A DNA stretch of 64,000 nucleotides from UHGV virus genome UHGV-0171999, one strand, 5' to 3'. This stretch comes from a virus. The notes below the pieces were generated by a model. It searched no databases and had not been told where the DNA came from. It worked only from the letters and a program-made list of their open reading frames with translations. Every line of letters begins with the position of its first letter. Position 1 is the first letter of the stretch. This document shows, in pieces, positions 1,137-59,037 of this stretch. The position numbers and the translations under genes were made by a program.

Positions 1137-2452
1137 CATTTGATGATTTGACAGAAGGCCAGAAAAATGCCTTTAACATCGTTATGAGGGCTATTAAAGA
1201 AAAGAAACATCATGTAACTATTAATGGACCTGCTGGTACTGGTAAGACTACTCTTACTAAGTTCATCATTGAAGCCTTAATATCTACGGGTGAAACTGGC
1301 ATTATTTTAGCAGCTCCTACACATGCAGCTAAAAAGATTCTTTCAAAACTATCAGGGAAAGAAGCGAGTACTATTCACAGTATTCTCAAAATTAACCCAG
1401 TAACATACGAAGAAAACGTTCTTTTTGAACAAAAAGAAGTACCGGATTTAGCTAAATGCAGAGTATTAATCTGCGACGAAGTGTCAATGTATGATAGAAA
1501 GCTATTTAAAATTCTGCTTTCAACTATTCCACCTTGGTGTACTATAATTGGAATAGGCGATAATAAGCAAATTAGACCTGTTGACCCAGGAGAAAACACT
1601 GCTTATATCAGTCCATTCTTTACGCACAAAGATTTTTATCAGTGTGAACTCACCGAAGTTAAACGTAGCAATGCTCCTATTATTGATGTAGCTACTGATG
1701 TTCGCAACGGTAAGTGGATTTATGATAAAGTTGTTGACGGGCATGGAGTACGTGGATTTACTGGTGATACCGCTTTACGCGATTTTATGGTAAATTATTT
1801 TTCAATCGTAAAATCACTAGATGATTTGTTTGAAAATCGTGTAATGGCATTTACGAATAAATCTGTTGATAAGTTAAATAGCATTATTCGTAAAAAGATT
1901 TTTGAAACTGATAAAGATTTTATCGTTGGTGAAATTATTGTAATGCAGGAACCATTAATTAAAACATATAAAATTGATGGAAAGCCTGTGTCAGAAATTA
2001 TTTTTAATAACGGACAATTAGTTCGTATTATAGAAGCAGAGTATACATCAACGTTTGTTAAAGCTCGTGGTGTTTCTGGAGAATATCTAATTCGTCATTG
2101 GGATTTAACAGTAGAAACTTACGGCGATGATGAATATTATCGTGAAAAGATTAAAATAATTTCATCTGATGAAGAGCTGTATAAGTTTAACTTATTTTTA
2201 GGTAAAACGGCAGAAACTTATAAAAATTGGAATAAAGGTGGAAAAGCTCCGTGGAGTGATTTTTGGGATGCTAAATCACAGTTTAGTAAAGTGAAAGCAC
2301 TTCCTGCATCAACATTCCATAAAGCTCAGGGCATGTCTGTAGACCGTGCTTTCATCTATACGCCTTGTATTCATTATGCAGATGCTGAACTAGCTCAGCA
2401 GCTTCTTTATGTTGGTGTCACTCGTGGTCGTTATGATGTGTTTTACGTGTGA
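1133..2452 (+). CDS. dda: Dda DNA helicase (SF1B), 439 aa
   Basis: Walker A GPAGTGKT, Walker B-like LICDEVSM, C-terminal VGVTRGR motif; length and N-terminus match T4 Dda. Confidence 0.97.
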   Translation: MTFDDLTEGQKNAFNIVMRAIKEKKHHVTINGPAGTGKTTLTKFIIEALISTGETGIILAAPTHAAKKILSKLSGKEASTIHSILKINPVTYEENVLFEQKEVPDLAKCRVLICDEVSMYDRKLFKILLSTIPPWCTIIGIGDNKQIRPVDPGENTAYISPFFTHKDFYQCELTEVKRSNAPIIDVATDVRNGKWIYDKVVDGHGVRGFTGDTALRDFMVNYFSIVKSLDDLFENRVMAFTNKSVDKLNSIIRKKIFETDKDFIVGEIIVMQEPLIKTYKIDGKPVSEIIFNNGQLVRIIEAEYTSTFVKARGVSGEYLIRHWDLTVETYGDDEYYREKIKIISSDEELYKFNLFLGKTAETYKNWNKGGKAPWSDFWDAKSQFSKVKALPASTFHKAQGMSVDRAFIYTPCIHYADAELAQQLLYVGVTRGRYDVFYV

Positions 2453-2458
2453 GGATAT

Positions 2459-2719
2459 ATGATTAACATCAATTCAAAATATTTAAATCGTCTAATAGAT
2501 GGTATAAAGAAGCATACTGATAAGCAAGATAACCTCAGTGTTATGGTAACAGGAGCTGAGCTCCTTTATAAGCTTAATCTTATAAGTGATACTATACTAG
2601 CAATTAAACGAATTGAAAAACAATCATATCATAGTAATACAGACACGGTAATTACATTAGATGAAAGTGTCTGTAAATTACTAATTAAATTTAAGGAAGC
2701 TATTCGTGGAAATAACTAA
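2459..2719 (+). CDS. hypothetical early protein, 86 aa
   Basis: ORF in the dda-dexA interval, same strand and tightly packed. Confidence 0.45.
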   Translation: MININSKYLNRLIDGIKKHTDKQDNLSVMVTGAELLYKLNLISDTILAIKRIEKQSYHSNTDTVITLDESVCKLLIKFKEAIRGNN

Positions 2720-2951
2720 AGATCAGTTTTATCTGCTTCAAGATAAAGTGAGCGAAATTTATGAAATAGCTTATAGTAAAAATCGCAAAAACGTGAAAAT
2801 TGAATCAGGCAAGTTAATGCTTCAATTGGAAGAAATTGAACGAGATTTAATTGCGTTAGAATTCTTTTGTGGTGAAGTGAAAACTGTTACAATCAGTGAT
2901 TATGTTTTAGGTGAAATTAGCCATCTTTATAAGGCGGTTATTAATGATTGA
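2706..2951 (+). CDS. hypothetical early protein, 81 aa
   Basis: ORF in the dda-dexA interval. Confidence 0.45.
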   Translation: MEITKDQFYLLQDKVSEIYEIAYSKNRKNVKIESGKLMLQLEEIERDLIALEFFCGEVKTVTISDYVLGEISHLYKAVIND

Positions 2952-3153
2952 ATTAAGTTTGCATCAGTTTAAATCTCTTATGGCAAATGTTAAAGTTGTC
3001 ATTCAAGAAAATTCAGGACCTGATAATGTTACTATTCGCGAAAAAGCTTCAAAGATAGTATACAGTCTTGAAGAGATACAAAAAGATATTGAATCTATGG
3101 CAAATTTATTGATGAGCCCATTAATAAAGTTTATATCCAAGATTATACTGTAG
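2911..3153 (+). CDS. hypothetical early protein, 80 aa
   Basis: ORF in the dda-dexA interval; overlaps the previous ORF, so the true start may be internal. Confidence 0.4.
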   Translation: MKLAIFIRRLLMIELSLHQFKSLMANVKVVIQENSGPDNVTIREKASKIVYSLEEIQKDIESMANLLMSPLIKFISKIIL

Positions 3154-3184
3154 GTCAAATTCGCGATTTAGCGAGGAAAATTTA

Positions 3185-3868
3185 ATGTTTGATTTTATTA
3201 TAGATTTTGAAACAATGGGAAGCGGTGAAAAGGCAGCTGTTATTGATTTGGCTGTTATTGCCTTTGACCCTAATCCAGAAGTAGTTGAATCATTTGATGA
3301 ATTAGTTTCACGCGGCATTAAAATCAAATTTGATTTAAAAAGTCAAAAAGGACATCGTCTTTTTACTAAAAGCACTATCGAATGGTGGAAAAATCAGTCT
3401 CCTGAAGCTCGAAAAAATATTGCACCGTCAGATGAAGATGTAAGCACTATTGATGGTATTGCGAAATTTAATGATTACATCAATGCACATAACATCGATC
3501 CTTGGAAATCTCAAGGCTGGTGTCGTGGAATGTCGTTTGATTTTCCAATTTTAGTTGATCTCATTCGCGATATTCAACGTCTTAATGGCGTTTCTGAGAA
3601 TGAGCTTGACACATTTAAGTTAGAACCATGTAAATTCTGGAATCAGCGTGATATTCGTACCAGAATTGAAGCACTTCTGCTTGTTCGCGATATGACCACG
3701 TGTCCTCTTCCAAAGGGAACTTTAGATGGATTCGTTGCACATGATTCTATTCATGACTGTGCGAAAGACATCCTGATGATGAAGTATGCTTTGCGGTATG
3801 CTATGGGTCTTGAAGATGCTCCGTCAGAGGAAGAGTGCGATCCTCTATCTCTTCCAACAAAACGATAA
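3185..3868 (+). CDS. dexA: exonuclease A (DexA), 227 aa
   Basis: Length, N-terminus MFDFIIDFET and acidic exonuclease motifs match T4 DexA; position after dda. Confidence 0.92.
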   Translation: MFDFIIDFETMGSGEKAAVIDLAVIAFDPNPEVVESFDELVSRGIKIKFDLKSQKGHRLFTKSTIEWWKNQSPEARKNIAPSDEDVSTIDGIAKFNDYINAHNIDPWKSQGWCRGMSFDFPILVDLIRDIQRLNGVSENELDTFKLEPCKFWNQRDIRTRIEALLLVRDMTTCPLPKGTLDGFVAHDSIHDCAKDILMMKYALRYAMGLEDAPSEEECDPLSLPTKR

Positions 3869-3874
3869 AAAGTT

Positions 3875-3906
3875 GTTTACTTCCTCGGTTAGTTGTGGTA
3901 TTATAA
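3875..3906 (+). promoter_or_regulatory. T4-type early promoter
   Basis: GTTTAC at 3875-3880 followed about 18 bp later by TGn TATTAT-like -10; directly after dexA stop. Confidence 0.5.
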
Positions 3907-3931
3907 CACCATAGCTACTGAGGATAATAAA

Positions 3932-4444
3932 ATGAAAATTTATCGTGTTGAATCATCGTTTAGCGCATTAAATGATGATAGTGGTATAGTGAAAATTAGG
4001 CAAGAGTTATGTGTTCAATCAACTCCTTATCGTGGATTTGATTCTATGAAAACTCGAACTTGGCTAAAATTTTGCGGTATTAATTCATCGTCATTTCATC
4101 ATCATAGCGATAATTATGAAAGCCATGAAAGTATTCCTATTCCACATGATGATAAGTTATTAGTTGAAAATGCTAATGATGCTATTAAAACTAAATGGAA
4201 TAAAGATTATTCGCAATTTGAAAATTATATTCCATTGTGGCTTATTGCATTATATCATTTTGCTTTCGCTAGTGAATATGATATGATGAGATGGTTCACC
4301 CGAGAAGAGCGTGAAGACTTAAAAGATCGTGGAATGTACATTGCGATTTATGAAGTTCCTGAAGATGAAGTTATCATTGGCGGGCACCAAGTAATGTTCC
4401 GCAAATCCCATGCTGAACTTATAGATTTTATTGAAATGAGATAA
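3932..4444 (+). CDS. hypothetical early protein, 170 aa
   Basis: ATG at 3932 preceded by GAGGA; the ORF-track start at 3893 lies inside the promoter. Confidence 0.55.
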   Translation: MKIYRVESSFSALNDDSGIVKIRQELCVQSTPYRGFDSMKTRTWLKFCGINSSSFHHHSDNYESHESIPIPHDDKLLVENANDAIKTKWNKDYSQFENYIPLWLIALYHFAFASEYDMMRWFTREEREDLKDRGMYIAIYEVPEDEVIIGGHQVMFRKSHAELIDFIEMR

Positions 4445-4446
4445 TT

Positions 4447-4989
4447 ATGAAATTTAATTATAATCCTGAATACACCCCAAATCCGGTAGCTAAACTGATT
4501 GATTTTGATGCTGTAAGCGCTTATGTATGTCCTGTTAAACCATTAGAAATTAAGGAAACCTTTATGACTGCTCGGACCATCGAAATTGGCAAAACCTACA
4601 AACTGGTTGAAACTGAAATTAAAACTACTGAACTAGATTTGAGTTATAAAGCATTGGTCAATGCTTTTGGTGAAGGCGAGTTTGTGGTTAAAAGTTTTTC
4701 AAAAAGTAATTGGTATGATAAGAATAAAGCTTATGTGATTCGGGCACATCGCTTAGATAATGATGAAGTAATTAAAACTATAGTCTTTGAAGCAGAGCTT
4801 ATCCTCTTCCAAGAATGCGATCCTACTGACCTTTTGACTCGTGCTGTAGCTATTAAGACTCCATTTATTTCGGTCTGTGGTTGGGTAACAGACCAGTGGA
4901 TTGAAGATGGTGTTGAACTTCTGAACGTTGTTCATGCAGGTGATTTTAGCGTAGTACCTCGTAGTGCAGTGGTAGCTATTTTGAATTAA
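4447..4989 (+). CDS. hypothetical early protein, 180 aa, C-terminal region similar to MotB
   Basis: C-terminal TDQWIEDGVELLNVV closely matches MotB TDQWVEDGVKLYNVV. Confidence 0.55.
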   Translation: MKFNYNPEYTPNPVAKLIDFDAVSAYVCPVKPLEIKETFMTARTIEIGKTYKLVETEIKTTELDLSYKALVNAFGEGEFVVKSFSKSNWYDKNKAYVIRAHRLDNDEVIKTIVFEAELILFQECDPTDLLTRAVAIKTPFISVCGWVTDQWIEDGVELLNVVHAGDFSVVPRSAVVAILN

Positions 4990-5065
4990 TAGTTTACAAA
5001 CTCTTGGGACCAGAGTATAATGGTCCTGTGGAGTATAAAATCTTTTTAACAAGTGAGAGATAACT

Positions 5066-5554
5066 ATGATTATTAATATTGGTGAAATTGCTCGTGTATC
5101 TGATAAATCCCGTTCTAAAGCAGCAGGAAAATTGGTCGAAATTGTAAGCATTCAGCTCAAACACGGCGTTAAAGATGAAGATTCTGAAGTAAAAGTGCGT
5201 ATCATTCCTAAAGATGGAAAGTCTAAACCTCAGTTTGGCTATGTTCGTGCGAAATTTCTTGAATCTGCGTTTTTGAAAGCTGTTCCTGCTAAAGGAATTG
5301 AAACGATTGATACTTCGCATGTAGGTGTAGACTTTAAGTGGAAACTCGGTCAGGCTATTAAGTTCATTGCTCCTTGTGAATTTAAATTTATCAAAGATGA
5401 TGGTGTGGCTGTTTATACTCGCGCTATGTGCGCATACATTACCGATCAGTGGGTAGAAGACGGTGTTAAGCTGTATAATGTGGTATTTTTAGGAACATAC
5501 AAAGTCATTCCTGAAAGCTGGATTAAACATTACAGCAAAGCTCTCTATGCATAA
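5066..5554 (+). CDS. motB: MotB, 162 aa
   Basis: Length and position (between dexA and gene 39) match T4 MotB. Confidence 0.8.
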   Translation: MIINIGEIARVSDKSRSKAAGKLVEIVSIQLKHGVKDEDSEVKVRIIPKDGKSKPQFGYVRAKFLESAFLKAVPAKGIETIDTSHVGVDFKWKLGQAIKFIAPCEFKFIKDDGVAVYTRAMCAYITDQWVEDGVKLYNVVFLGTYKVIPESWIKHYSKALYA

Positions 5555-5651
5555 AGTTTAAATTTTTTTCATAAAACTATATACATCAGTAGTTGATTAT
5601 GGTACTATATCAATATCAACTACTGATACAGAAAACAACTTGGAGAATAAA

Positions 5652-52537: not shown

Positions 52538-52806
52538 TGTTTGTCGTTCACACTATTTATGAAAATGAAGGTAATACTACACGTGATTACGGTCACGTAA
52601 ATCAATTTTTTAGATGCAATCCAGAATTCCGAGCTCAAAAAGACGAACGAATTTTTAAAAAATGTGTAGAGCAAGGTTTCATTTACGTCAAGCACTGGAT
52701 GCAAGGAAATAAAGTTAGAACTACATATCATAAGTCTTTGCCTGAGCTTAATGATGAATTGATTTATAATAGAGCTGTAAATCAAACTCTGAAGGATGAA
52801 CAATGA
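52537..52806 (+). CDS. hypothetical protein, 89 aa
   Basis: Overlapping ORF directly upstream of DNA ligase. Confidence 0.45.
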   Translation: MFVVHTIYENEGNTTRDYGHVNQFFRCNPEFRAQKDERIFKKCVEQGFIYVKHWMQGNKVRTTYHKSLPELNDELIYNRAVNQTLKDEQ

Positions 52807-54266
52807 TTCTTAAAATTCTGAATGAAATAGCATCTATTGGACCAACTAAGCAGAAGCAAGCAATTCTGGAAAAGAATAAAGATAATGAATTGCTTAAACG
52901 AGTGTATCGTCTGACTTATTCTCGCGGGTTACAGTATTATATCAAGAAATGGCCTAAACCTGGTATTGCTACCCAGAGTTTTGGAATGCTGACTATTACC
53001 GATATGCTTGACTTCATTGAATTCACGTTAGCTACTCGGAAATTAACTGGCAATGCAGCAATTGAGGAATTGACTGGATATATCACCGATGGTAAAAAGG
53101 ATGATGTTGAAGTTTTGCGTCGAGTGATGATGCGAGACCTTGAATGCGGTGCTTCAGTATCTATTGCAAACAAAGTTTGGCCAGGTTTAATTCCTGAACA
53201 ACCTCAAATGCTGGCAAGTTCTTATGATGAAAAAGGCATTAATAAGAATATCAAGTTTCCAGCCTTTGCGCAGTTAAAAGCAGATGGAGCTCGTTGTTTT
53301 GCTGAAGTTCGAGGTGATGAATTAGATGATGTTCGTCTTTTATCACGAGCTGGCAATGAATATCTAGGATTAGATCTTCTTAAGGAAGAATTAATCAAAA
53401 TGACTGCTGAAGCCCGCCAGATTCATCCAGAAGGTGTGTTAATTGATGGCGAATTGGTATACCATGAGCAAGTTAAAAAGGAACCAGAAGGCCTAGATTT
53501 TCTTTTTGATGCTTATCCTGAAATTAGTAAAGCCAAAGAATTCGCCGAAGTAGCGGAATCTCGTACTACTTCTAATGGAATTGCCAATAAATCTTTAAAG
53601 GGAACTATTTCAGAAAAAGAAGCTCAATGCATGAAGTTTCAGGTCTGGGATTATGTCCCGTTAGTAGAAATATACGGTCTTCCGACGTTTCGTTTAAAAT
53701 ATGATGTACGTTTTTCTAAACTAGAACAAATGACATCAGGATATGATAAAGTAATTTTAATTGAAAACCAGGTAGTAAATAACCTAGATGAAGCTAAGGT
53801 AATTTATAAAAAGTATATTGACCAAGGTCTTGAAGGTATTATTCTCAAAAATACCGATGGATTATGGGAAAATGCTCGTTCAAAAAATCTTTATAAATTT
53901 AAAGAAGTAATTGATGTTGATTTAAAAATTGTAGGAATTTATCCTCACCGTAAAGACCCTACTAAAGCAGGTGGATTTATTCTTGAATCAGAGTGTGGAA
54001 AAATTAAAGTAAATGCCGGTTCAGGTTTAAAAGATAAAGCTGGTGTAAAATCACATGAACTTGACCGTACTCGCATTATGGAAAACCAAAATTATTATAT
54101 TGGAAAAATTCTAGAGTGCGAATGCAATGGTTGGTTAAAATCTGATGGCCGCACTGATTACGTTAAATTATTTCTTCCAATTGCGATTCGTTTACGTGAA
54201 GATAAAACTAAAGCTAATACATTCGAGGATGTATTTGGTGATTTTCATGAGGTAACTGGTCTATGA
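52803..54266 (+). CDS. 30: ATP-dependent DNA ligase, 487 aa
   Basis: Adenylation motif KADGAR; length matches T4 gp30. Confidence 0.95.
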   Translation: MILKILNEIASIGPTKQKQAILEKNKDNELLKRVYRLTYSRGLQYYIKKWPKPGIATQSFGMLTITDMLDFIEFTLATRKLTGNAAIEELTGYITDGKKDDVEVLRRVMMRDLECGASVSIANKVWPGLIPEQPQMLASSYDEKGINKNIKFPAFAQLKADGARCFAEVRGDELDDVRLLSRAGNEYLGLDLLKEELIKMTAEARQIHPEGVLIDGELVYHEQVKKEPEGLDFLFDAYPEISKAKEFAEVAESRTTSNGIANKSLKGTISEKEAQCMKFQVWDYVPLVEIYGLPTFRLKYDVRFSKLEQMTSGYDKVILIENQVVNNLDEAKVIYKKYIDQGLEGIILKNTDGLWENARSKNLYKFKEVIDVDLKIVGIYPHRKDPTKAGGFILESECGKIKVNAGSGLKDKAGVKSHELDRTRIMENQNYYIGKILECECNGWLKSDGRTDYVKLFLPIAIRLREDKTKANTFEDVFGDFHEVTGL

Positions 54267-54451
54267 AAGCTTACTTAGAAACAATTGTCGTGGCTCAAAA
54301 AGAAGGTGGAGATGTTTCTACTTCTGTATCGCAAATCGTTCTCGAATTTGTAGATGCATATGCTTATAATAAATTCACAGAAACATTTGATGCCTATGAA
54401 AAAGGACCAAAGTTTGAAATATACCGCACTCTCTTACCAATAGATTATTAA
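54263..54451 (+). CDS. hypothetical acidic protein, 62 aa
   Basis: ATGA overlap with ligase stop; followed by a hairpin. Confidence 0.45.
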   Translation: MKAYLETIVVAQKEGGDVSTSVSQIVLEFVDAYAYNKFTETFDAYEKGPKFEIYRTLLPIDY

Positions 54452-54467
54452 AGGCCTTCGGGCCTTT
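54450..54467 (+). terminator. GC hairpin with UUCG loop (AAAGGCCTTCGGGCCTTT)
   Basis: Identical hairpin sequence to 7387-7404; sits between early block and the late promoter. Confidence 0.5.
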
Positions 54468-54472
54468 AATTT

Positions 54473-54480
54473 TATAAATA
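54473..54480 (+). promoter_or_regulatory. T4 late promoter TATAAATA upstream of the Alt-family genes
   Basis: TATAAATA 24 nt upstream of the first Alt-like start codon. Confidence 0.6.
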
Positions 54481-54503
54481 GAATAAACACTAGAGAGGAT
54501 ATG

Positions 54504-56597
54504 ATGGAACTCATTACAGAATTATTTGACGAAGATACTACTCTTCCGATTACAAACTTAAATCCAAAGAAGAAAATACCGCAAATTTTTTCAGTTCATG
54601 TTGATGACGCAATTGAACAACCAGGCTTTCGTTTATGTACCTATACATCTGGAGGTGATACTAATCGCGATTTAAAGATGGGCGATAAAATGATGCATAT
54701 TGTTCCTTTTACATTAACTGCTAAAGGCTCAATTGCTAAATTAAAAGGTCTCGGTCCAAGCCCAATTAATTACATCAATTCAGTTTTTACTGTTGCAATG
54801 CAAACAATGCGTCAATATAAAATTGATGCCTGTATGCTTCGTATTCTTAAGTCTAAAACTGCTGGCCAAGCTCGTCAAATTCAAGTTATTGCTGATAGAC
54901 TTATCCGTAGTCGTTCAGGCGGCAGATACGTCCTTCTTAAGGAACTCTGGGACTATGATAAAAAGTATGCATATATTCTTATACATCGCAAAAATGTATC
55001 ACTAGAAGACATTCCAGGAGTTCCAGAAATTAGTACCGAGCTCTTTACTAAAGTTGAATCGAAAGTCGGTGATGTTTATATCAATAAAGATACCGGAGCT
55101 CAAGTAACTAAAAATGAGGCAATTGCAGCATCTATTGCGCAAGAAAATGATAAACGTTCTGACCAAGCTGTAATCGTTAAAGTTAAAATTTCCCGTAGAG
55201 CAATTGCACAAAGTCAATCGTTAGAATCTTCTAGATTTGAAAGTGAATTATTCCAGAAGTATGAATCTACCGCAGCTAATTTCAATAAACCTGCTACCGC
55301 TCCTTTAATTCCCGAAGCAGAAGAAATGAAGCTTGGAATTAATTCATTAGCTTCTAAAACTAAGGCAGCAAAAATCATTGCCGAAGGAACTGCAGATGAA
55401 CTTCACTATGATTATAAATTCTTTTCAAAAAGTGAGGTTAATGAAGTTTCTGAAAAAATTAAAGATGTAATTCTTAATGCGATTAAAAATGAACCGACTA
55501 CTTCAATAAAATGTTTAGAGAAATACGCAGCAGCTGTTAATCAACTCTTTGAAGAATATAAAGATAATTGGCTTGATAAACATAATAAAACACGTAAAGG
55601 ACAGCCAGATGAAGTCTGGGAAGAAATAACTAAAAATTCCTGGAACGCAGCAAAAACTAAATTCATCAAAAGAATGATTTACAGCTTTTCTGGAATTGGT
55701 GCAGGTCCAATGATTGATATTACTATTGCCCGCGATGGTTCTAAATATACTCCATCACAAAAGCGCGGCATTAGAGAGTATTGTGGTTCAGGATATACTG
55801 ACATCAATAATCTTCTTTTAGGACGCTACAATCCAGAACGATATGATGTAATGAGTGAAAAAGAAATTGAATCTGCTATAAATAACTTAGATTCAGCTTT
55901 TGAAAATGGTGACCGTATACCAGAAGGCATTACAGTTTATCGTGCTCAAAGCATGACTGCTCCTATATACGAAGCACTAGTTAAAAATAAAGTGTTCTAT
56001 TTCAGAAATTTTGTATCTACTTCTTTAACTCCTATCATTTTTGGACGTTTTGGAATTACACATGCTGGTATTGGTCTTTTAGAACCAGAAGCTCGTAATG
56101 AATTAACAGTTGATAAAAATGAAGAAGGAATAACTATTAATCCAAGCGAAATAAGAGCGTATAAAGAAAATCCTGAATACGTTAAAGTTCAAATAGGATG
56201 GGCAATTGATGGAGCTCATAAAGTTAATGTTGTATATCCAGGAAGTCTCGGAATAGCAACAGAAGCTGAAGTAATTCTACCACGCGGATTGATGGTCAAA
56301 GTCAATAAAATAACTGATGCTTCTAATAATGATGGAACAACATCTAATAATACAAAACTCATTCAAGCTGAAGTTATGACTACGGAAGAACTCACCGAAT
56401 CAGTCATTTATGACGGTGACCGTCTAATGGAAACTGGTGAAGTAGTTGCAATGACAGGTGATATTGAAATAGAAGACAGAGTTGACTTTGCATCATTTGT
56501 TTCATCAAATGTTAAACAAAAAGTAGAATCATCTCTTGGAATTATTGCATCTTGCATAGATATTACAAACATTCCTTACAAGTTCGTTCAAGGATAA
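54504..56597 (+). CDS. Alt-family ADP-ribosyltransferase paralog, 697 aa
   Basis: N-terminal ~230 aa highly similar to the downstream copy; C-terminal ART-like motifs (YRAQ, FVSTSL, EAEVILPRG). Confidence 0.8.
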   Translation: MELITELFDEDTTLPITNLNPKKKIPQIFSVHVDDAIEQPGFRLCTYTSGGDTNRDLKMGDKMMHIVPFTLTAKGSIAKLKGLGPSPINYINSVFTVAMQTMRQYKIDACMLRILKSKTAGQARQIQVIADRLIRSRSGGRYVLLKELWDYDKKYAYILIHRKNVSLEDIPGVPEISTELFTKVESKVGDVYINKDTGAQVTKNEAIAASIAQENDKRSDQAVIVKVKISRRAIAQSQSLESSRFESELFQKYESTAANFNKPATAPLIPEAEEMKLGINSLASKTKAAKIIAEGTADELHYDYKFFSKSEVNEVSEKIKDVILNAIKNEPTTSIKCLEKYAAAVNQLFEEYKDNWLDKHNKTRKGQPDEVWEEITKNSWNAAKTKFIKRMIYSFSGIGAGPMIDITIARDGSKYTPSQKRGIREYCGSGYTDINNLLLGRYNPERYDVMSEKEIESAINNLDSAFENGDRIPEGITVYRAQSMTAPIYEALVKNKVFYFRNFVSTSLTPIIFGRFGITHAGIGLLEPEARNELTVDKNEEGITINPSEIRAYKENPEYVKVQIGWAIDGAHKVNVVYPGSLGIATEAEVILPRGLMVKVNKITDASNNDGTTSNNTKLIQAEVMTTEELTESVIYDGDRLMETGEVVAMTGDIEIEDRVDFASFVSSNVKQKVESSLGIIASCIDITNIPYKFVQG

Positions 56598-56600
56598 ATC

Positions 56601-58658
56601 ATGGAACTTATTACAGAATTATTTGACGGCGCTTCGGCGCCGGTTGTTAACTTAAATCCGAAGCATAAAATACCTCAAATTTTTGCTATTCAAGCAGGCG
56701 AAGAAAGTGTGCTTCCTGGATTTAGATTTTGTACATACACCTCCGGTGGTGATACAAATAAAAACGTTAAACCAGGCGATAAAATGATGCATATCGTAAT
56801 GATAGGTGTCAACGAAAAATTATCATTAGTCAAACTTAAAAACTTGGGTGGAAATCCAATTGGTGTCATTAATGCGGTTTTTGATACTGCTCTTCAAACA
56901 ATGAAACAGTATAAAATTGACGCATGCCTATTCCGCGTACTAAAAAGTAAAACAAATGGCGCAGCTCGTCAAATGCAAGTTATTGCTGACCGTTTAGTAC
57001 GTACTAAAGGAGCAGGTCGATATGTTCTTTTAAAGGAAATCTGGGACTATGATAAAAAGTATGCATATATTATGGTTTACCGTAAAAATGCTAATTTAGA
57101 AGACATTCCAGGTGTACCTCCTATTTCAACAGAGCTATTCACAAAAGTTGAATCAAAGGTCGGTGATGTTTATGTAGACGTTAAAACAGGTAATGCTGTT
57201 CCTAAAGCTGTCGCAGTTGCTGCTTCTATTGCTTTGGAAAATGATAAACGTACTGATCAAGCGGTTATTCAGAAAACTAAAATCAGTCGTCGATTAGCAG
57301 CACAAGCTCAATATTCTACTGTCGATGCTTCGCTCCAGGGTGATAGCTTCGCTGCCAAGAAATATCAAGAGTTTGAATCTAAAGTTCCGGTATATAAAGC
57401 AGAAGGACCAATGAACTCTGGTGTTATTCAGATTGGTTCCAACTTCAGCAAAGGAGCTATCGGTGGTATGAGAAGTGCTTCTCGTTTTAAATCTAACGAT
57501 TATGAACTAGAAAGCTTCCGAAATCATATTGCATTGGCCCATGCGCGTTTACGTGACCCATCTATCAAGCTGCAGAGCGATATAACATATCAAGGTTCTC
57601 AAGAATATTTAAAGAATAAAGAATTCTTTGATTATAAAACTGATAAAATTTTAAGCGATCTTGCTGACATTAATATTTCTAATAGCTTTGATGTTATTAA
57701 GAAAATTGTCAATGATTTAGTTAAAGGTTCTAAAGCCACGCCAGATGAAAAGGTAGCTATTGTTCAATTTGTCATGAATGGCATTTATAAATTGATTAAT
57801 GAGTCTGCTTCTCAAGCGTATGAATATGCAAGTACTGAAGTACCCCCAAAAGGATTAACTCAGGCTGAGTCCGATGTAATTGAAGATTATTGTGCAGATT
57901 CATATGTTGAAATGAACTCGTTCCTTTTGGGTAAACCAGATTCTACCCGTGAAGAATACATGGAACGAGCTATTAAACACATCGAGACAATGGATTCTGC
58001 CTTTGCCAAAGGATCAGTTCTTCCTCCAGGAACTACACTTTACCGTGGGCAAGAAGTTACCTTTAAAACTTTACGTCATAATATTGAAAATAAAATGTTC
58101 TATTTCAAGAACTTCGTATCCACATCGCTTAAACCAAATATCTTCGGTGAGTATGGTAAAAACTATATGGCTCTAGATGATTCCGGAACAGTATTTTCTG
58201 GTGAAGGAGAAGGTTCAGTTGATGCTGAAGATTTAATGCATATGGGTAGTCATTCTGCATATGCTAATGAAGATGCTGAAACTAGCGTAGGTATGGTAAT
58301 AAAAGGAGCTGAGCGAATTAAAGTTATCGTTCCAGGTCATTTATCAGGATTTCCATCAGAAGCTGAAGTTATTTTACCACGTGGAATTTTGCTGAAGATT
58401 AATAAAGTGAGCACGTATATGATGAAAGAAACTGCTTATAACAAGTATTTAATCGAAGGCACAATCGTTCCTCCTTCTGAACAATTAGAAGAATCGGTAT
58501 ATGATGGTGATCATCTAATGGAAACTGGTGAAGTTCGTCCAATGGCTGGATTTAATCAATTCCTTGTAGAAGAATCAAAAGAAGAGGAAAACGAAGTTTC
58601 TCAAATCTTGGCTTCTTTGGTTAACATCAACGGAATGTCTAAAAAGTTCAAGATGTAG
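56601..58658 (+). CDS. alt: Alt ADP-ribosyltransferase (virion-packaged), 685 aa
   Basis: Alt-family N-terminus MELITELFD; ART motifs LYRGQ, FVSTSL, EAEVILPRG; adjacent to gene 54 as in T4. Confidence 0.8.
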   Translation: MELITELFDGASAPVVNLNPKHKIPQIFAIQAGEESVLPGFRFCTYTSGGDTNKNVKPGDKMMHIVMIGVNEKLSLVKLKNLGGNPIGVINAVFDTALQTMKQYKIDACLFRVLKSKTNGAARQMQVIADRLVRTKGAGRYVLLKEIWDYDKKYAYIMVYRKNANLEDIPGVPPISTELFTKVESKVGDVYVDVKTGNAVPKAVAVAASIALENDKRTDQAVIQKTKISRRLAAQAQYSTVDASLQGDSFAAKKYQEFESKVPVYKAEGPMNSGVIQIGSNFSKGAIGGMRSASRFKSNDYELESFRNHIALAHARLRDPSIKLQSDITYQGSQEYLKNKEFFDYKTDKILSDLADINISNSFDVIKKIVNDLVKGSKATPDEKVAIVQFVMNGIYKLINESASQAYEYASTEVPPKGLTQAESDVIEDYCADSYVEMNSFLLGKPDSTREEYMERAIKHIETMDSAFAKGSVLPPGTTLYRGQEVTFKTLRHNIENKMFYFKNFVSTSLKPNIFGEYGKNYMALDDSGTVFSGEGEGSVDAEDLMHMGSHSAYANEDAETSVGMVIKGAERIKVIVPGHLSGFPSEAEVILPRGILLKINKVSTYMMKETAYNKYLIEGTIVPPSEQLEESVYDGDHLMETGEVRPMAGFNQFLVEESKEEENEVSQILASLVNINGMSKKFKM

Positions 58659-58687
58659 TTTACAAGTCTCTCGTGTTGTGTTATAGT
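58658..58687 (+). promoter_or_regulatory. T4-type early promoter
   Basis: GTTTAC 58658-58663 overlapping alt stop, 18-bp spacer, TATAGT 58682-58687. Confidence 0.6.
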
Positions 58688-58718: not shown

Positions 58719-59009
58719 ATGAAATCTTCTTTGCGCTTTTTAGGTCAAGAACTTGTAGTTGAAGGCGTTATTCCTGTTGATAACGCTTTTAATGAAGCAG
58801 TTTATGATGAATTCATTAAAATTTTCGGAACCGATAAAAAGTTTGGAATTTTTCCTTCTGAAAATTTTTCAAAGCCAGAACAGACTGAAAGTATTTTCCA
58901 AGGTGTAGTAACAGGTAAATTTGAGTCAGAAGCTCCGGTAAAAATTGAAGTTTATATTGAAGACAGTTTAGTTGCTTCAGTTGCTGCTTTTATTTCATTC
59001 CGTAAATAA
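58719..59009 (+). CDS. hypothetical protein, 96 aa
   Basis: ATG after GAGGAACACAAA; convergent with gene 54. Confidence 0.5.
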   Translation: MKSSLRFLGQELVVEGVIPVDNAFNEAVYDEFIKIFGTDKKFGIFPSENFSKPEQTESIFQGVVTGKFESEAPVKIEVYIEDSLVASVAAFISFRK

Positions 59010-59015
59010 AAATAT

Positions 59016-59033
59016 GGGGACCTTTCGGTCCCC
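59016..59033. terminator. bidirectional GC hairpin between convergent genes
   Basis: GGGGACCTTTCGGTCCCC between the 96-aa ORF (+) and gene 54 (-). Confidence 0.55.
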
Positions 59034-59037
59034 ATTG

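Follow-up and report, generated by a model that had tools for sequence, protein, structure and literature searches.

The DNA analysed here is a stretch of 64,000 nucleotides from the virus genome UHGV-0171999 (this whole stretch is referred to as the window), which is a segment of a Tequatrovirus (T4-like) genome. Our subject is its alt locus, at which two adjacent open reading frames (ORFs), here called copy 1 and copy 2, encode members of the Alt family of ADP-ribosyltransferases (ARTs). Genes and signals follow one another in the order lig, alt.1, terminator, predicted late promoter, alt (altA type, copy 1), a second alt (altB type, copy 2), alt.-3, a bidirectional terminator, and the baseplate genes 54 and 48, which converge on alt.-3. 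The pair thus lies between lig/alt.1 and alt.-3/gene 54, in early-gene orientation yet behind a late promoter, as is characteristic of the position of the Alt family. A first-pass annotation, made from the letters alone, had described two genes of 697 and 685 amino acids (aa), 3 nucleotides (nt) apart and both starting MELITELFD, and the ORFs are as it described them. Copy 1 measures 698 aa from its first ATG (54501) and 697 aa from its second (54504); the second ATG yields MELITELFD and is the start annotated in T4 and its relatives, and a GAGG at 54495-54498 ends 5 nt upstream of it. The 3 nt between the stop codon of copy 1 and the ATG of copy 2 (56598-56600) recur as a spacing of the same length in G50, T2 and JS10.

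The two products are paralogues: BLASTP aligns them at 40% identity over 718 columns (E = 2e-158), far beyond chance, and this settles the pairwise comparison that the first-pass annotation had proposed as a check. Similarity is distributed very unevenly along the proteins. Residues 1-238 are 68% identical, identity falls to 20% across the middle, and it stands at 37% for the ART domain and 38% for the tail, in agreement with the earlier description of high similarity over some 230 N-terminal residues followed by divergence in the middle and the C-terminal ART domain. All of the shared motifs quoted in that description are present, with the correction that GGRYVLLKE reads AGRYVLLKE in copy 2.

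Both proteins match the ART family PF03496 (ADPrib_exo_Tox) in a Pfam search, with 129.3 bits for copy 1 and 72.8 bits for copy 2 against a cutoff of 23.4, and both match phrog_802, 'Alt-like RNA polymerase ADP-ribosyltransferase', over positions 2-674 of 674 (907 and 849 bits, respectively). The catalytic motifs are YR479-480, STS505-507 and E587-A-E589 in copy 1, and YR481-482, STS507-509 and E587-A-E589 in copy 2. Neither copy lacks catalytic residues, a defect that the first-pass annotation had named as fatal to its proposal; in an alignment of 20 homologues, reaching down to 42% identity, R482, S507, S509, E587 and E589 are invariant and T508 is nearly so. A PDB sequence search with copy 1 gave only weak matches, to binary-toxin ARTs, and found no solved Alt structure; in the alignment to CDTa, TVYR and EAEVILPRG of copy 1 lie opposite TVYR and EYEVLLNHG, and the matches listed include Iota Ia. 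The same search with copy 2 gave no match at E <= 0.01, and an NCBIfam search of four proteins of the locus found no family for any of them.

An AlphaFold2 model of copy 2 has a mean predicted local distance difference test (pLDDT) score of 73, with the 10-residue blocks of the ART region mostly at about 70-90 and its insert lower. Foldseek places Vis, Certhrax, C3, CDTa, Iota and VIP2 at the top of the matches to this model (probability 1.0, template modelling (TM) score normalised to the target of about 0.6, E down to 4e-7), and the model has the ART fold with the NAD-binding core of C3-like and binary-toxin R-S-E ADP-ribosyltransferases. Family, motifs and predicted fold place both products among the multidomain mono-ADP-ribosyltransferases of the R-S-E (Alt/VIP2, C3-like) clade. 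Within this clade an E-x-E motif, as opposed to Q-x-E, predicts an arginine acceptor. The E-x-E of both proteins accordingly predicts arginine specificity for each, which fits the known Arg265 target of Alt.

Each protein can be divided into four parts, namely a conserved alpha/beta N-terminal domain of about 238 aa (hereafter the N domain), a variable helical middle, the ART domain, and a short conserved tail (YDGDxLMETGE) with a disordered C-terminus. In the tail, the motif YDGD(H/R)LMETGE lies at aa 632-645 of copy 2 (window 58494-58535, + strand) and in the matching part of copy 1; its Y, D, G, D, E, G and E are invariant in the 20-homologue alignment, and it precedes the C-terminus, which is modelled as disordered (pLDDT < 50 from residue 629). 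The L-M-E of this motif resembles the cleavage motif of the prohead protease gp21, and C-terminal processing is conceivable, purely by that resemblance.

Modelled alone, the N domain gives a confident alpha/beta fold (pLDDT 84.8). In a fold search of predicted viral structures (BFVD) it matches Alt homologues and, more weakly (TM score of about 0.5), the N-terminal portions of large, uncharacterised proteins from other myoviruses, some of which bear zeta-toxin, deaminase or ParB domain annotations; it has no strong match among solved structures and no MuF match in Pfam. PF26846 is listed besides PF03496 on Alt homologues in precomputed domain lists and presumably covers the N domain. A profile search of 1.84 billion representatives, which asked whether this domain is often joined to other effectors, returned only 74 proteins with it, nearly all of them containing an ART. 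The weaker matches sampled divide into ART-containing proteins and others, and four (P0182, P0184, P0187 and P0188; 347-1142 aa) have no detectable ART in the remaining 200-900 residues. This thin evidence, from profiles and models, is compatible with the idea that the N domain may be a separable, general delivery module. At its very start both copies read MELITE/LFD; E6 is invariant and position 4 is I or L (ITE here, LNE in JS10). Sites of the form (I/L)-x-E are of the kind cut by gp21 during T4 head maturation, and by analogy the (I/L)-x-Glu6 of both copies fits the N-terminal trimming of gpAlt by that protease.

The two-gene layout is the ordinary, annotated state of the locus in most T4-like coliphages. 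A megablast search with the locus matched 541 phage records, 283 of which cover at least 80% of it at 90-97% identity, and their usual annotation is 'Alt-like RNA polymerase ADP-ribosyltransferase (x2)'. Copy 2 is present at full length and at least 90% aa identity in 402 of the 541 records, including T2, which has the same pair of 697 and 685 aa, and RB14, in which the second gene is labelled alt.-2; about 96 records hold only a remnant and in about 43 copy 2 DNA is undetectable. In the Dhakavirus JS10 the pair is named alta and altb, and both its surroundings and its 3-nt gap are those seen here. As early as 2006, Nolan et al. listed paralogous duplications adjoining alt in T4, RB49 and 44RR. 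Tandem alt genes are therefore already known and are not a discovery; any novelty attached to the arrangement by the first-pass annotation falls away, as most close relatives have essentially this layout as their standard, annotated alt locus. What that annotation had left open, whether T4 carries one or two full-length copies, is answered by the comparison of the loci: T4 has one, followed by the decayed remnant of a second, and is itself exceptional in having lost the greater part of that gene.

In T4, alt.-1 (61 aa) and alt.-2 (67 aa) come after the full alt gene (682 aa), and the text of the T4 record describes them as an old 'duplication of the first part of gene alt'. Together these two ORFs correspond to codons 1-116 of copy 2 (its first 348 nt), at about 95% nucleotide identity, and their families (phrog_23015 and phrog_15247) score 138 and 131 bits against copy 2 and 78 and 70 bits against copy 1. 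T4, AV121 and fPS-90 share exactly the same junction, with window position 56948 joined directly to 58648; the loss in this lineage comprises 1,699 bp between 9-bp direct repeats, CTAAAAAGT, at 56940 and 58639. Past the junction the T4 frame enters the alt.-3 promoter region, which accounts for the odd C-terminus of alt.-2. Beyond what it shares with AV121 and fPS-90, T4 alone has a 1-nt deletion near window position 56760, where AAATAAAAAC has become AAAT-AAAAC, and this splits the remnant in two. The T4 genes alt.-1 and alt.-2 are the remnant of a full-length paralogue, produced by a microhomology deletion and a 1-nt frameshift, and not a partial duplication. A separate deletion is found in sutha (PV245934; 2925-5128 of its locus sequence), running from window position ~56594, in the last codons of copy 1, to ~58531; a 38-codon ORF (the last ~117 nt) is kept there from the 3' end of copy 2.

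Where it is present, copy 2 is conserved. The ratio of non-synonymous to synonymous substitution rates (dN/dS) in comparison with T2 is 0.048 for copy 2, 0.043 for copy 1, 0.086 for gp54 and 0.065 for gp48. On the strength of this ratio copy 2 is a maintained gene under purifying selection, not a pseudogene. We also considered a recent duplication within phage UHGV-0171999 and rejected it, since even the N-domain sequences of the two copies agree at only about 69% of nucleotides, and each copy has an orthologue in a second genus.

The evolutionary histories of the different parts of these genes do not coincide. Copy 1 shares 98% identity with T2 alt and 72% with T4 Alt; in the latter comparison the N domain is 100% and the tail 93% identical, against 33% for the middle and 65% for the ART domain. 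Copy 2 is 44% identical to T4 Alt overall, and 68% in the N domain. The ART domain of copy 1 is 93% identical to that of JS10 altA, whereas gp54 and gp48 are only 63-65% identical to their JS10 counterparts; at the DNA level, identity to JS10 is 77.5% over most of copy 1 and about 66% for genes 54 and 48. Because of this excess over the neighbouring genes, the comparison points to an exchange of the copy 1 catalytic module between genera, or else to an import of the T4 allele. The catalytic modules are orthologous in order, copy 1 with altA and copy 2 with altB (56%), and cross comparisons give 35-37%. N domains show the opposite pattern and follow the lineage of the phage: paralogues within a genome are 68% identical here and 66% identical in JS10 (genes at 1413-3497 and 3501-5624 of its locus sequence), compared with 42-47% between genera whichever pair is chosen. 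This pattern suggests gene conversion, homogenisation, or co-evolution with a lineage-specific partner. Read most economically, these identities would reflect an old duplication, with an N domain that was homogenised or co-evolved within each lineage and an enzymatic part that was exchanged as a cassette.

The first-pass annotation had placed a late promoter at 54473-54480. The octamer TATAAATA is indeed there, directly 3' of the alt.1 hairpin and with 23 nt (54481-54503) between it and the start codon of copy 1. It stands at the same place in T4, T2 and G50 and is annotated as a late promoter in SA20RB; JS10 has CATAAATA at this position. The alt.1 hairpin itself is invariant in T4, T2, G50 and JS10, and the annotations of G50, SA20RB and fPS-90 list it as a terminator; a simple terminator scan of the window did not flag it. 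A second exact TATAAATA lies inside copy 1 (55877-55884) and is likewise annotated as a late promoter in SA20RB. Its position coincides with the codons of A-I-N-N, a conserved part of AINNLDSAF; T2 and AV121 have the exact octamer, G50, T4 and fPS-90 do not, and it is probably an incidental by-product of coding. Between copy 1 and copy 2 a simple scan of the + strand found no terminator-like site. Given this and the 3-nt gap, a single promoter at 54473 would serve both genes, and a Shine-Dalgarno sequence within the end of copy 1, together with the gap, suggests co-transcription and possibly translational coupling. Transcriptome and proteome data show alt to be expressed late in T4 (PMC9697503).

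Downstream, the 60-nt gap between copy 2 and alt.-3 holds a predicted promoter (G-TTTACA, a 17-nt spacer, TG-n-TATAGT), the sequence of which is retained across the T4 deletion junction; judged from these elements, alt.-3 may be expressed early as well as through late read-through. Mutations by which T4 escapes CmdTAC map in alt.-3 (PMC11618068). The coordinates of the features are collected in Table 1.

Table 1. Features of the alt locus of UHGV-0171999, in window coordinates.
Feature	Position	Strand	Basis
DNA ligase gp30 (lig)	52803-54266	+	
alt.1, 62 aa, follows gp30	54263-54451	+	ORF; Pfam PF24647 Phage_blade, 102.7 bits; annotated Alt.1 in T4 and T2
G+C-rich hairpin AAAGGCCTTCGGGCCTTT then AATTTT; terminator-like, closes the upstream early/middle unit	54450-54467	+	read from sequence
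TATAAATA, T4 late-promoter consensus (putative function)	54473-54480	+	
Copy 1 (alt, altA type, T2-type allele), 697 aa	54504-56597	+	
Copy 1, N domain	54504-55217	+	
Copy 1, ART domain	~55635-56384	+	
Copy 1, catalytic codon R480	55941-55943	+	
Copy 1, catalytic codons STS505-507	56016-56024	+	
Copy 1, catalytic codons E587-x-E589	56262-56270	+	
AAGGA, Shine-Dalgarno for copy 2, within the last codons of copy 1, 6 nt 5' of the ATG	56590-56594	+	sequence
Copy 2 (altB type; 'alt.-2' in RB14 and ime09), 685 aa	56601-58658	+	
Copy 2, N domain	56601-57314	+	
Copy 2, ART domain	~57840-58460	+	
Copy 2, catalytic codon R482	58044-58046	+	
Copy 2, catalytic codons STS507-509	58119-58127	+	
Copy 2, catalytic codons E587-x-E589	58359-58367	+	
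CTAAAAAGT, left copy of the 9-bp direct repeat (T4-type deletion junction)	56940-56948	+	
CTAAAAAGT, right copy of the 9-bp direct repeat	58639-58647	+	
Sigma-70 / T4-early-like promoter upstream of alt.-3 (predicted)	58659-58687	+	
alt.-3, 96 aa, DUF5498, last gene of the rightward unit	58719-59009	+	ORF; Pfam
Bidirectional terminator hairpin between alt.-3 and converging gene 54	59014-59035	.	scan; annotated in G50, SA20RB and fPS-90

In C3- and Iota-type ARTs the ADP-ribosylating toxin turn-turn (ARTT) loop, the stretch before E-x-E, contributes to substrate choice. The residues before E-x-E are GIATEAE in copy 1, GFPSEAE in copy 2 and APSNEME in T4 Alt. These residues, the divergent middle and the insert between STS and E-x-E are the basis on which we infer that copy 2 modifies a different set of host proteins. 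For T4 gpAlt itself, about 40 copies are found in the prohead core, a small N-terminal peptide is removed by gp21, and the protein is injected with the DNA (PMC9958956); T4 Alt ADP-ribosylates Arg265 of the RNA polymerase alpha subunit and other proteins, and the T4 allele is the only one represented in the biochemical literature (PMC2988021); for the two proteins described here, the literature searched yielded no assay.

The explanation that we favour is that of a complete two-gene alt locus encoding two ARTs that act in the manner of T4 Alt. Both genes would be transcribed late from the promoter at 54473, with copy 2 read off the same mRNA; the shared N-terminal module would direct both proteins into the prohead core, where gp21 would trim the N-terminus after the conserved (I/L)-x-Glu6; both proteins would then be injected together with the DNA and modify host proteins by ADP-ribosylation of arginine, with substrate sets that differ between the copies as the middle region and the ART domain differ. 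That copy 2 would be co-expressed, packaged, trimmed and injected like Alt is argued by analogy from its shared N domain, the placement of the late promoter, the 3-nt gap, the internal Shine-Dalgarno sequence and the lack of an intervening terminator in our scan. Taken as a whole, we consider this explanation probable. A more far-reaching form of it, which we put forward tentatively as a real possibility, is that the altB-type gene generally encodes a second head-packaged, injected, arginine-specific ADP-ribosyltransferase with targets unlike those of Alt, that the N domain is a separable head-delivery module matched to the phage lineage, and that catalytic cassettes have been exchanged between genera, with non-ART cargo in a few phages.

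Several observations weigh against these proposals and need to be interpreted alongside them. The octamer TATAAATA is not enriched in the AT-rich window (7 found against 9.07 expected from shuffles), so the argument for a late promoter rests on position and conservation. Copy 2 might conceivably also have a late start of its own, at the TATAAATA inside copy 1. It has been lost at least twice independently, in the T4-type and sutha-type deletions, and is for this reason dispensable under at least some conditions. Finally, the literature searched holds no direct evidence of copy 2 in virions, as an injected protein or as an active enzyme; for its function, its proteomic detection or a name, that literature yielded only the duplication remark of 2006 and database names.

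The dispensability of copy 2 in T4 and sutha also bears on the possibility that it is active and merely duplicates copy 1, with the same targets (for example Arg265 of RNA polymerase alpha) and a role in dosage or backup only. The copies belong to the same family and have the same catalytic residues, including the E-x-E from which arginine is predicted, and overlap among T4 ARTs has a precedent, as Alt and ModA both modify alpha Arg265 (PMC2988021). However, ART domains that are only 37% identical, middle regions at 20% and different residues before E-x-E are not what redundancy would lead one to expect, and equally strong purifying selection on both copies, across about 400 genomes, is not easily explained by pure redundancy; we regard this alternative as unlikely. 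The losses might also be taken to mean that copy 2 is an inactive or decaying duplicate, a notion that the T4 annotation of alt.-1 and alt.-2 might encourage, given that 348 nt are all that T4, AV121 and fPS-90 retain of it and the final ~117 nt all that sutha retains. This view is already contradicted by an intact ORF of 685 aa with all catalytic residues, by the dN/dS of 0.048 and by the 402 full-length records at 90% aa identity or more, and is hardly credible for the gene described here.

A different possibility concerns the place of action: copy 2 could be made late, stay unpackaged and act in the producing cell, on host or phage proteins late in infection or on a defence system. The literature searched offers no proteomic evidence of packaging, and the link of the neighbouring alt.-3 to CmdTAC escape means that the locus may hold in-cell counter-defence functions. 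Against this stands the full N domain that copy 2 has in common with the head protein Alt, at an identity (68% here, 66% between JS10 altA and altB) above that of inter-genus orthologues; the first nine residues, MELITELFD, are moreover the same in both copies and include the (I/L)-x-E6 that matches the gpAlt trimming site. We therefore judge an unpackaged copy 2 to be quite improbable, and retain packaging and injection of both enzymes as the preferred explanation.

These results indicate that the T4 reference is atypical at this locus, as its alt.-1 and alt.-2 are the debris of a full-length paralogue. The only Alt studied biochemically, that of T4, has a catalytic module unlike the allele of T2 and of this phage, and the T4 enzyme is not the common allele; caution is needed when T4 Alt biology (RNA polymerase alpha Arg265, MazF) is extended to other T-even phages. 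The second enzyme is conserved under purifying selection, and we found no functional study of it in the literature searched. If the proposed role is correct, an altB-type enzyme would be present in about three-quarters of Tequatroviruses, including T2, and a deletion at 9 bp of microhomology, by which T4 lost it, would explain why it has escaped study. To the known existence of tandem alt genes, the present analysis adds the origin of alt.-1 and alt.-2, the selection acting on the second gene, the cassette-like mosaicism of the pair and the observation on the T4 allele.

Among known systems, the closest to copy 1 is T4 gpAlt (NP_049811, 682 aa), which has the same locus, the same promoter and terminator context and the same R-S-E family; it differs in that copy 1 is a T2-type allele, with the middle and ART domain diverged to the extent given above (33% and 65% identity). 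The pair as a whole corresponds to alta and altb of JS10, to alta of SP18 and to the second alt gene that T2, RB14 and ime09 carry under the label 'alt.-2' or 'Alt-like', with the same lig-alt.1-A-B-alt.-3-54-48 order and 3-nt gap. T4 also encodes ModA and ModB, which are small (~200 aa) and are not known to carry an Alt-type N-terminal domain. These belong to the same Alt/VIP2 R-S-E clade of phage ARTs and act on host proteins; unlike Alt, they are early products and are not injected from the head (PMC5512222, PMC2988021). The bacterial toxins C3 exoenzyme, Vis, Iota Ia, CDTa, C2-I and VIP2 have the ART fold and the Y-R, S-T-S and E-x-E motifs in common with the Alt proteins, but at 14-20% sequence identity; they are delivered by a binary toxin pore or by secretion and not by a phage head, and, unlike them, the Alt proteins have a large insert between STS and E-x-E. 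The N domain of Alt differs by sequence from MuF, and its role as a packaging module would be an analogous one; the MuF-fused ARTs and polyvalent proteins (Iyer et al. 2017; PMC9503650) follow the same logic, in which a head-associated N-terminal module is joined to an exchangeable effector that enters the cell with the DNA.

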